Assembly (NCBI GenBank): GCA_022646745.1
Contig: CP060262.1
Span: 1,500,001 to 1,532,000, forward strand
DNA length: 32,000 bases
Reading direction: 5' to 3'
Source: Planctomycetales bacterium
Lineage (GTDB): Bacteria > 4484-113 > JAFGCY01
Part shown: in pieces, positions 11,089 to 20,032 of the stretch
Numbering within the stretch: the first letter of the stretch is position 1
Layout: every line of letters begins with the position of its first letter
Notes under the pieces: generated by a model
Seen by the model: only the letters and a program-made list of their open reading frames with translations
What the model was told of the DNA's origin: nothing
Database searches by the model: none
Made by a program: the position numbers and the translations under genes

Positions 11089-11943
11089 TCATCCACTGCG
11101 CTTCAGCAGCCCCGTGCGCTTGGCATACTTCTCCGCCAGGAGGAAGATCAGGTAGCCCAGCGGCAGGAAGATCGCGCCGGTTGCCACCAGCCCCGCCATC
11201 TCGTTGCCAAGCTGGCTGAGCGGTGCACCCTCCAGCAGCGCCTTCCTCTGCGCCGTCAGTGCCCAGTAGGCCGGGCTGGCAATCGCCGCCCCCTGCAGCC
11301 ATGTGGGCAGCACGCTGATCGGGTAGTACACGCCGCTGATCAGCAGGATGATCGCGAGGATGATGTGCGTACCCTGCGCCCCCTTCTCCGGGCTGATCAG
11401 CGGCAGCGTGGCCGCGATCAGGCCCAGCCCGACGACTGCGAAACTGCCGACCACCAGCACCACCAGTGAACTGAGGATGTTGGCATTGCTCAGGTCAATG
11501 TGGAAAAACCAGACGAGGAGGCCCATCATCAGGATGATCCTGACAATGCCGTACAGCACTGCGAATGCACACACGCCGAACAGGTGCGTGAGCCGGTGGA
11601 TCGGCGCCATGAAGGTGTACTCCAGCGTGCCCTCCCAGCGTTCCCAGGCGACGGTTTCCGCCACGATGATGAACAGCACTGAGAGATAACTCCACATGAT
11701 TGCGCCGATCAAGAGGTAGAACACGTAGGGCTGCTTGCCGGCGTAGTCCGGGGCTGCGCCGCTGGACATGCCGATCAGGCCGATGATCACTGCGTTGATC
11801 AGGTTGTAGAACAGCCAGACGATGTCCCAGCCGAGGTAGCGCTTCGTCAGGTCGATGTCGCGCATGATGAACGCGCGGATCGCCGACAGCTCCCGCATGA
11901 TGCGGCTGCCGCGGCCCTCGACGCGTTGTTGGTTCACAGACAT
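11089..11943 (-). CDS. ABC-2 type transporter permease (DrrB/Wzm-like)
   Basis: This polytopic membrane protein begins MSVNQQRVEGRGSRIMRELSAIRAFIMRDIDLTKRYLGWDIVWLFYNLINAVIIG, the ABC-2 N-terminal pattern. I chose the ATG at 11943 because AAGGAGA lies 6 nt upstream. The ORF-track start at 12036 has no SD. Confidence 0.85.
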   Translation of the reverse strand: MSVNQQRVEGRGSRIMRELSAIRAFIMRDIDLTKRYLGWDIVWLFYNLINAVIIGLIGMSSGAAPDYAGKQPYVFYLLIGAIMWSYLSVLFIIVAETVAWERWEGTLEYTFMAPIHRLTHLFGVCAFAVLYGIVRIILMMGLLVWFFHIDLSNANILSSLVVLVVGSFAVVGLGLIAATLPLISPEKGAQGTHIILAIILLISGVYYPISVLPTWLQGAAIASPAYWALTAQRKALLEGAPLSQLGNEMAGLVATGAIFLPLGYLIFLLAEKYAKRTGLLKRSG

Positions 11944-12073
11944 TGCTTGTCTCCTTTTGAGGACCTGGGAGCTTGGATCTTGGGTGTAGGGCAGGTGCAA
12001 TGCCTTGGGTATTGCCCTGGGCACATTGTCGCGCATTGCGCGCCACTGATGCCGGTCTGCTACACCTTACAAC

Positions 12074-12616
12074 CTAGCTCCCAGTTCCTTGATTCCATTC
12101 CTGGCGCGTGATCGCGTAGTAGGCGACCCCATGCCAGTTGCCACGGCTGCAGAACTCACAGGGCTTCAGGCCCCTGAGCTGCATGCCGCTCAGTTCCATG
12201 CTGCGCCGGGCAGCCCGGTGGCTGTCCAGCGTGTCCCCCCGGACGGTGCCCAGCGGGTGGTTGCCAAACAGCCAGCCGATCACCAGCCGCTTGGCCTCAA
12301 CGCCGTATCCCCGCCCGCGCAGCTCCGGGTGGATGCGGGTGCCAAGCGTTGCCGACATCCTGAACCCGTCGGTGGATTCATAGTACTCGTTGCCGATGTG
12401 GCGGCCCGTTGCCAGCTCCTCGATCGCGAAGCAGCCGCGCTCGTCCATGAACAGGCCGCTGCCTGCAAAGGCCTGCCTGTCGCGCATGCCCGGCGGGTTG
12501 ATCGGCCCCCAGAAGGGATTGCCCTCCTTCTGCTCAAGTTGGCGCCAGGCCCGGTACTCCCCGTAGTCGCGGTAGGGCCTGAGCCGGATCCGCTCTCCGT
12601 TGACAATCAACTGCAT
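12074..12616 (-). CDS. GNAT N-acetyltransferase, RimJ/RimL-like (paralog P1)
   Basis: Starts MQLIVNGERIRLRPYRDYGEY. Motif A: LRGRGYGVEAKRL. C-terminus: AITRQEWNQGTGS. The ATG at 12616 is preceded by AGGAGGG and lies 1 nt after the P2 stop. Confidence 0.85.
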   Translation of the reverse strand: MQLIVNGERIRLRPYRDYGEYRAWRQLEQKEGNPFWGPINPPGMRDRQAFAGSGLFMDERGCFAIEELATGRHIGNEYYESTDGFRMSATLGTRIHPELRGRGYGVEAKRLVIGWLFGNHPLGTVRGDTLDSHRAARRSMELSGMQLRGLKPCEFCSRGNWHGVAYYAITRQEWNQGTGS

Positions 12617-12617
12617 T

Positions 12618-13184
12618 TCAGCTGGCCCTCCTGACTGCGTGCCGGTAGTCCATCGCCGCCCAATCGCTGCGCAGCAGCTGGAAGGACAGCGTGCCTTCCC
12701 GCTGGCCATGCCGCCAGTGCACACAGGGCTTCAGCCCGGCCTGCCGCATGCCACAGAGCTCCATGCCACGGATGGCGGCTGCATGCGTTGCCACTGTGAT
12801 CGCGAACAGCGATTCCAGCGGGTAGTTCTCGAACAGGTAGCAGGCCATCAGCTGCTTTGCCTCAACACCGTATCCGCGGCCCTGCCAGGCCGGACGGATG
12901 AATGTGCCGAGGTATGCGCTGATGCCCGGCAGCACACCCGTGCTGCTTTCCTCATAGCCAATCAGCGACCCGCTTTCCCGGCAGGCGACGGCGAAGATGT
13001 TCATGCCGGACTCGGAGATGTATCCGGCCGGTTCGAACTCCCGGCGCTGTCCGGCGATTGGCCAGTGGTGCGGTCCCCACTGGTCATTGCCGCACTCCAG
13101 TTCCTCGTGCACAAGCGTGAGGTATTCATCGACATCCCTGAACGGCCGGATAAGTGCCCGCTGGCCTTCATAAACCGTGTACAT
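12618..13184 (-). CDS. GNAT N-acetyltransferase, RimJ/RimL-like (paralog P2)
   Basis: MYTVYEGQRALIRPFRDVDEY...WQGRGYGVEAKQLMACYLFENYPLE...AAMDYRHAVRRAS. The ATG at 13184 has AAGGAGG 7 nt upstream. The ORF-track start at 13190 is a GTG only 1 nt from that SD. Confidence 0.85.
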   Translation of the reverse strand: MYTVYEGQRALIRPFRDVDEYLTLVHEELECGNDQWGPHHWPIAGQRREFEPAGYISESGMNIFAVACRESGSLIGYEESSTGVLPGISAYLGTFIRPAWQGRGYGVEAKQLMACYLFENYPLESLFAITVATHAAAIRGMELCGMRQAGLKPCVHWRHGQREGTLSFQLLRSDWAAMDYRHAVRRAS

Positions 13185-18352: not shown

Positions 18353-18370
18353 ATCAGTGCTCCTTCGGAG

Positions 18371-18440
18371 CGGTCAGTGGTCGGTAGTCAGAAGTCAGAT
18401 CAATTCATCTGCTTTAATCTGACCACTGACCACTGACTAC
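18371..18440 (-). repeat. conserved intercistronic hairpin element C (multiple GTCAGTGGTC / GACCACTGAC copies)
   Basis: GTCAGTGGTC is at 18373-18382. GACCACTGAC is at 18421-18430 and again at 18428-18437. GTCAGAT (18394-18400) pairs with ATCTGAC (18417-18423). The P12 TAG stop (18437-18439) lies inside CTGACTAC. Confidence 0.6.
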
Positions 18441-19018
18441 TTCCCGGCGAATTCCCGCCGCTGCTGCTCGGCCAGTTCGCGGTAGGCCGGTGCGATCCAG
18501 CCGTAGTGGTGCACCGCCACCGGTTCACCGAGCCACATCTGCATGCGCTCGAACACAACCTCCAGCTCATAGCCGCAGTCCTTCAGCCAGCCGGCCTTGG
18601 CGGCCTCCGGTTCGATGATCTCGCAGCCGATCCTGACGGGGTCGTGCCAGTCCATCATCAGCGACTCATAGGCCTTCAGGATGTCCATGCCGACTGCGTC
18701 GCGGTCAGCGATGTTGTCATCGACATGCACCGTGATCCAGTAGACCCGGTTCTGCCCGCGCTGCACGAGGAAGCCGACCACACCGCCGGCCTTGCGCACG
18801 GCGACGTAGTACTTCTCGCCGCTGCCCCACAGGCCGGGGTCCTTCTCGTCCTCGAACTTCTTCTTCAGCCGCTGCAGTGTCCAGGGCGTCGGCTTGCGTT
18901 CGCAGGGGTTCTGCGCCATCAGCGGTGCCAGCTGCTCGAGGTCCTTCTCGAGCACGGGGCGCAGCACGATATGCTCGCCCTCCACGAAACCGCGTTCGGT
19001 ACTTGCGTTGTCAGTCAT
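18437..19018 (-). CDS. divergent GNAT-like protein (paralog P12), motif A degenerate
   Basis: 193 aa. It keeps the N-terminal box (GEHIVLRPVLEKDLEQL) and a similar length, but lacks the xxG(F/Y)GxEAKLL motif found in P1-P11. AAGGAGAA lies 6 nt upstream of the ATG. Confidence 0.6.
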   Translation of the reverse strand: MTDNASTERGFVEGEHIVLRPVLEKDLEQLAPLMAQNPCERKPTPWTLQRLKKKFEDEKDPGLWGSGEKYYVAVRKAGGVVGFLVQRGQNRVYWITVHVDDNIADRDAVGMDILKAYESLMMDWHDPVRIGCEIIEPEAAKAGWLKDCGYELEVVFERMQMWLGEPVAVHHYGWIAPAYRELAEQQRREFAGK

Positions 19019-19084
19019 TTCCGTTCTCCTTGTATCCCTGTATGCCCGGCGTTACATTCCGCCGGCCGTTGTCATTCCAGTTCG

Positions 19085-20032
19085 TCAGGACTTGTCCACG
19101 TCCTCTTCGGCACTCAGCCACTCATGTCCCGTCAGTTCCATGAACACTTCCTCCATGCCCGGAAGCGCATCCCCCTCGGAGGCTTCGCCGCGCTCGATGC
19201 GGCGCTTCAGCACCTGCTGCTTCAGTTCCTCGGAGGTGCCGCGGGCCACGAAGCGGCCATCCGCCATCAGCGCGATCCGGCCGCACAGCCGCTCCACCTC
19301 GTCCATGTCATGGCTGGTGAGCAGTACGGTCGCATCATGCGTGCGCTGCAGTTCGAGGATGTAGTCCTGCACGTCACGCTTGCTGCGCGGGTCCAGTCCG
19401 GTGGTCGGCTCGTCCAGCAGCAGGAGCACCGGGCTCGTCAGCAGCGCGCGGGCGATTGCCACCTTCTGCTGCATGCCGCGGCTCAGTTCCTGCATGCTGT
19501 CCGTCAGCCGCCCTTCCTCAAGGCCGAGCTTCTGCAGGATCTCCTCGGCGCGCTTCAGCGCTGACCTGTCGTCAACGCCGTACAGCCTGGCCGCATAGAG
19601 CAGGTTCTCGTTCGGTGAGAGCTTCTTGAAGAATGCCGCATCCACGCTCACGCGGTTCAGCAGCCGCTGCACCTGGTAGCTCTGGCGCAGCGGGTCCATC
19701 CCGAACACGCGGATGTCGCCTGAGCTCTGCTCCAGCAGTGTGCTGATCATGCGGATCAGCGTGCTCTTGCCACTGCCGTTGTGCCCGACCACGCCGAAGA
19801 TCTCGCCACGCCTGAGCTGCATGCTGATGTTGTCAACAGCCACCTTGCGCTTCTTCGGCCGGACCAGCAGGCGGCCGAGCCTTGCCAGGCCGCTGACCGG
19901 TGTCAGCTCCTTCTTCGGCACATTGACGATGAAGTGCTTGCAGAGGCTGCGCACATCCAGTGCGTCAGTCGCCGCATCGACCTTCATCAATTCCAGTTCA
20001 GGGTGCAGGCCCGGGGCCTTCACTGCGTCCAT
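19085..20032 (-). CDS. ABC transporter ATP-binding protein (ABC-2/DrrA-like)
   Basis: Walker A: GHNGSGKST. Signature: LSRGMQQK. Walker B: VLLLLDEPTTGLD. H-loop: LLTSHDMDE. GAGGAG lies upstream of the ATG at 20032. Confidence 0.9.
   Translation of the reverse strand: MDAVKAPGLHPELELMKVDAATDALDVRSLCKHFIVNVPKKELTPVSGLARLGRLLVRPKKRKVAVDNISMQLRRGEIFGVVGHNGSGKSTLIRMISTLLEQSSGDIRVFGMDPLRQSYQVQRLLNRVSVDAAFFKKLSPNENLLYAARLYGVDDRSALKRAEEILQKLGLEEGRLTDSMQELSRGMQQKVAIARALLTSPVLLLLDEPTTGLDPRSKRDVQDYILELQRTHDATVLLTSHDMDEVERLCGRIALMADGRFVARGTSEELKQQVLKRRIERGEASEGDALPGMEEVFMELTGHEWLSAEEDVDKS

Follow-up and report, generated by a model that had tools for sequence, protein, structure and literature searches.

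Immunity through acetylation of amines by GNAT family enzymes is established against Trojan-horse inhibitors of aminoacyl-tRNA synthetases and has been described for TfxH, with a comparison to microcin C (10.64898/2025.12.02.691738). The MccE/RimL and TfxH systems are among the closest described counterparts of the locus that is analyzed here, an apparent operon with a large array of GNAT acetyltransferase genes lying between the genes for the two subunits of an ABC-2 type exporter, in a 32,000 nucleotide (nt) stretch of the genome of a Planctomycetales bacterium (positions 1,500,001 to 1,532,000 of contig CP060262.1; hereafter, the window). In those systems, as possibly in the window, an acetyltransferase of the RimJ/RimL type detoxifies a translation poison at its free alpha-amine and is encoded beside an exporter; the kinship between the enzymes is at the level of the Pfam family. 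The MccE and TfxH systems, however, consist of one enzyme directed at one toxin and encoded in or beside the producer cluster, whereas the window encodes many diverged paralogs together with an additional GNAT-fold protein, denoted D below, and contains no mcc or tfx genes. Another counterpart is the translational-stress regulon of the repressor TrcR in Anabaena, in which rtcB, rsgA, two GNATs and an ABC ATPase are induced together by translation inhibitors; one of these two GNATs shares the operon alr1537-1540 with a drug/metabolite transporter (DMT) family exporter of the toxic amino acid beta-N-methylamino-L-alanine (PMC10272220). This is the same functional set as in the locus analyzed here and its relatives (GNATs, exporter, RtcB and RsgA), and the likeness is one of function: the TrcR genes are scattered and controlled by a repressor, whereas here there is one operon with a leader open reading frame (ORF), a GNAT array and an ABC-2 pump.

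The exporter itself resembles DrrAB in the families to which its ATPase and its six-helix-type permease belong, but in every relative of the locus that has both, the two genes are 0.6 to ~9 kb apart, separated by D and GNAT genes and, in one clade (C), also by the gene for the RNA ligase RtcB. The clusters for peptides made on the ribosome and modified after translation (RiPPs) that are tailored by GNATs (lipolasso 9IY3, selidamides, nostolysamides) and the methyltransferase CorZ share with the window the GNAT fold, methyltransferase homology and a small ORF beside the enzymes; these clusters combine a small number of GNATs (one or two) with a class-defining maturase and a recognizable leader-core logic, none of which was found here. 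The attenuators TnaC and SpeFL depend on Rho and stall the ribosome at the stop codon. Like the window, they have a short ORF upstream, equipped with a Shine-Dalgarno sequence of its own, and a C-rich tract right after the stop codon, with co-transcription of the ORF and the genes being probable here; in contrast, there is no sequence homology between these peptides and the small ORF of the window, and the predicted mRNA switch is inconsistent between loci. SpeFL contains a HIRRXXH sensor and a Phe-rich effector and senses ornithine; the ribosome stalls at its stop codon, and Rho is blocked (10.1101/604074). That leader peptides can control efflux and resistance genes is established for mef/mel and msrD (PMC4335068, PMC10314930).

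Every component of the locus is of a known kind. The combination of a split transporter, a GNAT array, D, a leader ORF with a rut-like (Rho utilization-like) tract and the optional RtcB and RsgA is without a match in the literature and the libraries searched (Pfam, NCBIfam, PADLOC and Rfam); for the exporter split by GNAT genes, an earlier note on this DNA had likewise named no described counterpart. The locus appears to be a single operon on the minus strand that consists of a promoter, a 24-codon leader ORF, a C-rich spacer, genes for a methyltransferase, an ABC ATPase, D and 11 GNATs, and the permease gene. The explanation that we favor, tentatively and with a probability slightly short of even, is an operon that is controlled by a leader peptide, responds to stress on translation, and serves to cap amines through acetylation and methylation and to export the capped products. 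The earlier note delimited the unit at positions 11089-20032; the unit is larger, beginning at the promoter (21131-21158) and additionally including the 24-codon ORF and the gene for an amine N-methyltransferase. Within the original boundaries, all twelve minus-strand ORFs reported at 12074-19018 exist and none is disrupted, with lengths of 180-194 amino acids (aa) once the starts are set by alignment, as opposed to 180-193 aa. The gaps of 66 nt between the ATPase gene and the first of these ORFs and of 130 nt between the last GNAT gene and the permease gene are as described, and Pfam matches (ABC_tran and ABC2_membrane) agree with the identities assigned to the two flanking genes.

The single-operon organization finds support in several observations. 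The best sigma-70-like promoter in the 10.8 kb scanned is located upstream of the whole gene set, no convincing intrinsic terminator was detected inside the operon in that scan, many of the genes overlap or are 1-4 nt apart, and the gene order is conserved in relatives. Given the recurrence of this order in other loci from metagenome-assembled genomes (MAGs) and metagenomes, the upstream promoter with no convincing terminator inside the operon and the tight junctions, the arrangement is not due to chance. The promoter scan yielded four matches against 2.2 expected by chance, and one of these, a 10/12 match at 13936-13963 (minus strand) in the 5' part of the G8 gene, could be an internal promoter or a chance match. 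An Rfam search returned nothing meaningful either in the whole window (at gathering thresholds) or in the leader region (E up to 5), so that no known riboswitch was identified, and PADLOC produced only generic matches to the ATPase and the methyltransferase, that is, no known defense system.

Searches of MAGs and metagenomes, with one GNAT and then D as queries, yielded 17 distinct related loci in records labeled UBP7, 'Bacteria_4484_113' or Planctomycetales. The operon is rare, conserved and restricted to an uncultured lineage, and the order ATPase-(D, GNAT)n-permease recurs with a varying number of GNATs, from one (L017 and L020) to at least 12 (L008), as the earlier note had suggested checking. 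The window belongs to clade A, which is characterized by a small ORF, methyltransferase, ATPase, D, GNATs and permease, and in which GNAT counts are at least 12 in L008, 11 in the window and in L010, 10 in L001, 8 in L007, and 5 in L003/L004 and in L002. Clade B (L006 and L013) has two D and three GNAT genes and no permease nearby; the ATPase ORFs in this clade are longer, with 394-402 aa and an Ala/Gln-rich low-complexity tail (L006 8135-9319; L013 6888-8096), and a short-chain dehydrogenase/reductase (SDR) gene follows the last GNAT gene. In clade C (L014, L017, L020, L021 and L016), the gene for RtcB (Pfam E 6e-102) lies in the operon of all five loci, between the GNATs and the permease; the GNAT counts are 9 in L014, which also has four D genes, one in L017, L020 and L016, and two in L021, where RsgA, a GTPase of the 30S subunit, is encoded after RtcB in the same orientation (4230-5189). 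In L022/L023, D and GNAT genes, at least five of the latter, are interleaved. Because even the smallest relatives already have D and one GNAT gene between the ATPase and permease genes, the split of the transporter is ancestral to the family and does not result from a local insertion, contrary to the earlier note, in which the acetyltransferase genes were described as inserted. Some of the relatives are reduced: L020 lacks the methyltransferase and keeps the small ORF, whereas L016 (1134-4800) is a deletion derivative that retains intact the promoter, the small ORF and the genes for D, a single GNAT and RtcB; the methyltransferase is gone, and of the transporter there are only remnants, with 89 aa left at the C-terminal end of the ATPase and a short piece of the C-terminus left of the permease.

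Profile searches assigned 11 of the 12 ORFs to PF13302 (Acetyltransf_3), with scores of 25.7-46.5 bits against a gathering threshold of 25.4, so that a placement outside the GNAT superfamily, considered in the earlier note, is not borne out for these proteins. In the order of transcription, these are G1 (17807..18352; E 1.2e-11), G2 (17169..17735; E 2.8e-10), G3 (16609..17169, start MHVVY; E 8e-9), G4 (16043..16609; E 3.2e-10), G5 (15423..15977; E 1.3e-10), G6 (14866..15420; E 2.2e-6), G7 (14309..14869; 25.7 bits, barely over the threshold), G8 (13752..14306; E 5e-8), G9 (13168..13752; E 1e-6), G10 (12618..13190; E 8e-12) and G11 (12074..12616, start MQLIV; E 3e-11), all on the minus strand. 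None of the NCBIfam families matches any of these 11 GNATs or D. The motif reported earlier, xxG(F/Y/L)GxEAK(L/Q)L followed by LF(E/D/G)N.P, is present in the 11 GNATs, and all of them have the Gly-x-Gly core of motif A (RGFGREA, RGYGVEA etc.) within the best-conserved helix; the first residue of the motif A signature (Q/R-x-x-G-x-G/A) is not Q or R in several of them. The N-terminal (V/I)R(L/I)RP(F/Y) box, described as common to all 12 ORFs, holds approximately, with four exceptions (VLRPV in D, TRIRPF in G2, VRLRPV in G4 and ALIRPF in G10). The structural model of G4 (predicted local distance difference test score, pLDDT, 91.3) has the GNAT fold; the models of G4 and D match hundreds of GNAT structures at E <0.001. 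Among the neighbors of the GNATs by profile and fold are RimJ-like proteins (TTHA1799 and M. smegmatis RimJ), PacT, SpeG and diamine acetyltransferases, and a lasso-peptide acetyltransferase, all with ~15-26% identity. What these neighbors have in common is that they acetylate a free amino group, in many cases the alpha-amine of an aminoacyl moiety.

The 11 GNATs of the window show 25-54% pairwise identity (mean 38%), with neighbors in the array tending to be most alike, and in a joint tree across genomes, they form orthogroups in which the gene order is kept. Orthologs of G1, G2, G5 and G7 are present in all clade A loci, those of G3 only in L001 and L008, those of G6 in L001 and L008, those of G8 in L008 and L007, and those of G11 in L001, L003, L008 and L010; G10 is absent from L008 and 76% identical in L010. 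For orthologous pairs, the ratio of nonsynonymous to synonymous substitution rates (dN/dS) is 0.02-0.53, mostly 0.1-0.2. The paralogs are old and individually maintained under purifying selection, as indicated by the low pairwise identity, the ordered orthogroups and the low dN/dS; the same observations rule out recent amplification as well as neutral decay, the latter having been raised in the earlier note. The repertoire nevertheless turns over, and it does so independently of the small peptide encoded by the leader ORF: L008 has a peptide identical to that of the window and shared genes with 95-99% identity, together with two extra GNATs and without G10, and L002 and L003 have the same peptide with different GNAT repertoires. 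Individual genes also appear to be exchanged. Between the window and L001, dS is ~1.4 for the methyltransferase and for G9 (1.37 for the latter) as opposed to 0.4-0.65 for the neighboring genes, which suggests replacement of single cassettes by recombination with a more distant allele. When the alignment is mapped on the G4 model, the conserved elements along the fold are beta1, alpha3 (motif A) and alpha4, and the variable ones are alpha1, alpha2 and their loops, the beta3-beta4 loop and beta6-beta7, which make up the acceptor side in GNATs; the array may be multi-specific, as proposed in the earlier note.

The remaining ORF, D (18437..19018, minus strand), adjoins the ATPase gene and scores 15 bits (E 0.04) against PF13302, below the threshold. 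In place of the acetyl-CoA loop signature Q/RxxGxG/A, this protein has DRDAVGMD, so that the canonical motif is missing, although an AlphaFold model made from database D sequences has the GNAT fold (pLDDT 91). The set described as twelve RimJ/RimL paralogs thus consists of 11 canonical GNATs and one member of a separate GNAT-fold family. D is the most conserved protein of the operon, with 83-99% identity across clade A, above the GNATs, and a dN/dS of 0-0.29. The family is rare and sharply delimited: a HMMER search of 1.84 billion representative proteins retrieved ~20 full-length clusters at 50% identity before scores typical of generic GNATs were reached. D is encoded after the ATPase in most loci and is interleaved with the GNATs in L014, L006 and L022. 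Furthermore, L024 encodes a natural GNAT-D fusion (P0052, a 398-aa ORF at 1537-2733) with the GNAT in the N-terminal half and D in the C-terminal half, and the fusion gene lies straight after that of an ABC ATPase. The position after the ATPase, the interleaving with GNATs and the fusion suggest that the GNATs, and possibly also the ATPase, have D as a partner subunit, probably a non-catalytic one.

RimJ and RimL acetylate ribosomal proteins, the toxins TacT and AtaT act on aminoacyl-tRNAs, and SpeG acetylates polyamines. The top structural matches of the G4 model are PacT, RimJ and TTHA1799, with SpeG also retrieved (Foldseek); PacT is the first of these, with E 1.4e-12, a template modeling (TM) score of 0.72 and 24% identity. 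PacT (PA3270) is reported to acetylate aminoacyl-tRNAs (PMC9561280). These matches, along with RimJ and TTHA1799 being the best by both sequence and fold and with RtcB and RsgA being co-operonic in relatives, would be compatible with GNATs that acetylate ribosomal proteins or aminoacyl-tRNAs to remodel or throttle translation under stress, with D perhaps acting as their partner or inhibitor and a separate purpose for the ABC proteins. This lesser rival explanation seems very unlikely to us, considering that the identity to PacT is only 22-26%, that a dozen co-transcribed toxins with a single D are implausible in clade A, that the conserved flanking ATPase and permease point to a small exported substrate, and that the locus contains neither a DNA-binding antitoxin nor a two-gene toxin-antitoxin module. 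A GNAT toxin-antitoxin module of the PacTA, TacAT or AtaRT type was specifically considered and rejected: the fold is of the PacT type, but there is no adjacent antitoxin of the ribbon-helix-helix (RHH), Xre or AraC kind and no PADLOC match, and D has the GNAT fold.

The methyltransferase (20051..20872, minus strand) is a class I S-adenosylmethionine (SAM)-dependent enzyme (Pfam Methyltransf_25, E 1.6e-20), apparently of the amine N-methyltransferase type; its ORF reaches 20941, and the likely start at 20872 was chosen from the alignment and an AGGAG motif. The best NCBIfam match is the daptide methyltransferase (NF041820) at 110.5 bits, short of the cut-off of 175, and none of the other daptide genes is present at the locus. 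The closest solved structure is that of CorZ (9SOT; E 1.3e-37); MtfA, CcbJ, CypM and amino-sugar N,N-dimethyltransferases come next. The substrate of CorZ is a tripeptide RiPP, which it methylates at the free amine of the N-terminus (PMC12951456). From these matches, the methyltransferase can be placed in the free-amine N-methyltransferase group, and because its relatives and those of the GNATs alike act on free amines, both types of enzymes are likely to cap amines. The ABC ATPase (19085..20032, minus strand; ABC_tran, E 2.3e-31) is DrrA-like, resembling TIGR01188 (drrA) at 224 bits, below the 312 cut-off. The ABC-2 permease (11089..11943, minus strand; ABC2_membrane, E 7.5e-14) reaches 44 bits with TIGR01247 (drrB), below the cut-off of 223. 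Across clade A, identity is 85-97% for the ATPase and 86-91% for the permease. The two genes are not adjacent, being ~7 kb apart in the window and separated by at least D and one GNAT gene in the relatives that have both; the permease gene is the last one of the operon in clade A, L014, L017 and L020.

Alignment of the intergenic region with those of the relatives reveals a strongly conserved leader block upstream of the methyltransferase gene. The block starts with the sigma-70-like promoter TTGCCA-16 nt-TATAAT (21131..21158, minus strand; an 11/12 match), and a promoter-like match lies just 5' of the small ORF in all 13 loci for which the upstream region is available. The promoter is followed by a hairpin in the 5' untranslated region (GCCGCC-AAAT-GGCGGC; 21106..21121, minus strand), which is found in the same place in relatives with another stem (GTCCGC/GCGGAC) and might stabilize the mRNA or have a regulatory role. 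The block also contains AAGGAGGT. The small ORF (21004..21078, minus strand) encodes MNMIRKPLDGKRIRTGHTGFCFCS and is preceded by the Shine-Dalgarno sequence AGGAGG (21086..21091, minus strand), which is invariant in clade A. An ORF is present in the same place in all 13 loci, with a length of 23-24 codons, or 27 codons in clade B. Across codons 7-19, the clade A ORFs have five variable sites, and all five are synonymous third positions, which indicates that in this clade the ORF is translated and its sequence is constrained. Between clades, the small ORF sequences are unrelated (examples are MINCKIAQAHKSPGGLDYFVSLNRPQS, MMRVMIGSATAVTTAAGLPRFRY, MSNDRCAYSGQAVRRRNLPSCFFY, MFIAVPAKTMAACARRYLRMLFFR and MFDGYEPTKAPVVRQGLLHTSPL), and most of the peptides have an Arg-rich center and an aromatic C-terminus.

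For the most part, the Shine-Dalgarno sequence that precedes the small ORF is predicted to be in a paired state (probability unpaired 0.10-0.36). In five of the six clade A loci, its partner is the segment of codons 14-19 of the ORF, and in clade B, it also pairs with codons 14-19, through unrelated sequence, with one compensatory change seen; a universal pairing with the coding region of the ORF was considered and discarded, given that it holds in clades A and B only. According to the alignment, another hairpin (TTGAGTC...GACTCAA; 20985..21007, minus strand) spans the stop codon and is present in each clade A locus with differing stems, and folding predicts a hairpin in most of these. No T-run follows the stop-codon hairpin, which is accordingly not an intrinsic terminator. 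The spacer between the small ORF and the methyltransferase gene is C-rich and G-poor (20873..21003, minus strand; C/G ratio 1.66). In the 10 loci tested, the spacer is 128-241 nt long with a C/G ratio of 1.3-1.9, and the best 78-nt spacer window begins 2-35 nt past the stop codon and has a ratio of 1.8-2.5, compared with 0.86 (median) and 1.38 (99th percentile) for the coding strand of the operon. Judged by composition, the spacer is what would be expected of a Rho-loading site, and it is placed as in the tna and speF leaders.

The small ORF, strongly signaled and directly 5' of the enzyme genes, with a hairpin after it, could alternatively encode the precursor of a new RiPP-like product, that is, a 24-aa peptide in which a conserved leader at the N-terminus precedes an aromatic, variable core at the C-terminus (FCFCS, FRFFH, FFSI...) and which would be tailored by the methyltransferase and the GNATs with D, and exported. 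The position of the small ORF, its conservation within clades and the relatives of the methyltransferase make this a serious rival, although the features of the small ORF suit a regulatory leader no less well and we consider the RiPP explanation unlikely on balance. The nearest solved relative of the methyltransferase, CorZ, modifies a RiPP N-terminus, and the best NCBIfam match of the methyltransferase is the daptide enzyme; RiPP-tailoring GNATs exist, and one of these, the iterative lasso-peptide acetyltransferase 9IY3, is among the structural matches (TM 0.79); and the ATPase, D and the permease all diverge more slowly than do the methyltransferase and the tail of the peptide. However, identical peptides are accompanied by different GNAT sets (the window versus L008, and L002 versus L003), no leader motif is common to the peptides across clades even though D and the GNATs are clearly homologous, and some of the peptides (L014 and L016) have no lysine. 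A variant of the proposal in which each GNAT modifies one acceptor residue of the peptide was rejected because the number of candidate acceptor residues does not track that of GNATs and identical peptides occur with different repertoires. Searches against Pfam and NCBIfam detected no recognition-element domain, leader protease or class-defining maturase among the operon proteins. Furthermore, RtcB and RsgA are hard to fit in a biosynthetic pathway, the small ORF is kept in L020, which lacks the methyltransferase, and in L016, which lacks both the methyltransferase and the pump, and the C-rich spacer of 128-241 nt would have no obvious role. There is also a slim chance that the small ORF is the scaffold of a new class of ribosomal peptides that GNAT-D heterodimers would successively acylate or aminoacylate, in which case the GNAT repertoire would define strain-specific exported products. 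A microcin C-type system, in contrast, was rejected outright: there is no ThiF/E1-like gene for an MccB-like adenylyltransferase in the operon, and the peptides end with S, H, I, Y, R or L, not with Asn.

The clade A peptide, with KRIRTGH...F.FF, is reminiscent of SpeFL with its HIRRXXH sensor and Phe-rich effector, a similarity that is a lead only. Combined with the profile and fold matches of the GNATs to SpeG, PaiA and diamine acetyltransferases and with the rut-like tract after the small ORF, this resemblance would accommodate a role in homeostasis of endogenous amines, where the GNATs acetylate various nitrogens of the cell's own polyamines, diamines or basic amino acids, the products are exported, and the leader senses the metabolite in the way SpeFL senses ornithine. 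The SpeFL resemblance, however, is confined to a short motif that lies at another distance from the stop codon and is absent in other clades, and the matches to SpeG-type enzymes are no better than those to RimJ or PacT. In addition, 1-13 paralogs that are rapidly gained and lost would not be expected of a housekeeping function, and RtcB and RsgA are left unexplained. Amine homeostasis is therefore regarded as a lesser rival and as quite unlikely.

The preferred explanation, amine capping and export under the control of a leader peptide, can be spelled out as follows. The GNAT paralogs would share a common acetyl-CoA site and differ in their acceptor pockets, such that each of them acetylates the free amine of a different amine-bearing compound that disturbs translation. 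The candidate substrates include toxic amino-acid analogs, aminoacyl-nucleotide warheads, polyamine-like and aminoglycoside-like molecules, and short peptides. The methyltransferase would cap amines by methylation, the ABC-2 pump would expel the capped products, and D, with its GNAT fold and probably without catalytic activity, would pair with the GNATs as a partner. Expression would be set by the leader ORF: pausing or stalling of the ribosome near the end of the ORF could keep Rho off the rut-like tract or open up the mRNA, which would let transcription and translation run on into the operon. RtcB, an RNA repair enzyme, and RsgA, the 30S GTPase, in the operons of relatives would tie the operon to damage of the translation apparatus. 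The leader and detoxification/efflux explanation is favored because variation of the GNAT repertoire is not tied to the peptide, RtcB and RsgA occur in the operons of relatives, the corresponding Anabaena genes are induced together, and there is a precedent of immunity conferred by GNATs; the retention of the promoter, small ORF, D, GNAT and RtcB in the decayed locus L016 was counted in favor of the leader as well. Of the two functional possibilities offered in the earlier note, acetylation followed by export fits the data better, and a tailoring set for an exported product less well, in view of the same peptide being found with different GNAT sets, the presence of RtcB and RsgA in the operons of relatives, and the leader-like ORF with the rut-like tract.

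Several observations weigh against this explanation. The closest homologs of the enzymes are only ~20-25% identical, and the best matches of the methyltransferase are RiPP enzymes. RtcB and RsgA are absent from the clade of the window itself, and clade B has the ATPase and no permease nearby. The rut-like tract is a signal of composition only, the partner with which the Shine-Dalgarno sequence pairs differs between clades, and folding predictions with a ribosome on the small ORF do not consistently open up the Shine-Dalgarno sequence of the methyltransferase across 10 loci. The conservation of the amino acid sequence of the small peptide within clade A fits an arrest peptide and, equally, a RiPP leader.

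The most likely function, modification followed by export, is conventional in principle. If the amine-capping explanation is correct, the locus would be a multiplexed immunity island that caps amines and pumps out the products, with the specificity residing in a GNAT array of fast turnover and the induction read from the ribosome. The array would then be a natural library of acceptor pockets on one scaffold, D would represent a new family of GNAT partners, the small ORF would encode a leader-peptide sensor that is new and comes from a phylum-level lineage without cultured members, and the set as a whole would be a pointer to natural translation poisons that are important in the respective habitats. 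If, alternatively, the peptide is a precursor, the system would define a new peptide natural product family. Either way, at ~10 kb, the unit is compact and suited to heterologous expression.

The neighborhood of the operon includes, directly upstream, an extracytoplasmic function (ECF) sigma factor (21693-22322, minus strand; Pfam Sigma70_r2/r4) and an 82-aa anti-sigma factor (21333-21581, minus strand), which, from the ORF translation, contains a zinc-binding H-x3-C-x2-C motif and appears to be soluble, with no membrane segment seen. Clade A and L022 have the pair at this same position, and in relatives, a glyoxalase gene is located just upstream of the sigma factor. A regulatory link between this pair and the operon is not evident because the operon's own promoter looks sigma-70-like. 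On the other side, two tandem genes for MscS-type mechanosensitive channels (7080-9595, plus strand) are convergent on the operon, and one or two such genes are found there in all clade A loci. These genes prompted us to consider a role of the operon in osmolyte synthesis, which was set aside given that the MscS genes are convergent neighbors and are confined to clade A. Between the MscS genes and the permease gene, there is a gene for a PKD-domain protein (9676-10989), which is found only in the window and in L007. Finally, an X-Pro dipeptidyl-peptidase (S15) with an N-terminal PKD domain is encoded at 4332-7031 (plus strand) and is also a neighbor of the operon in L002.

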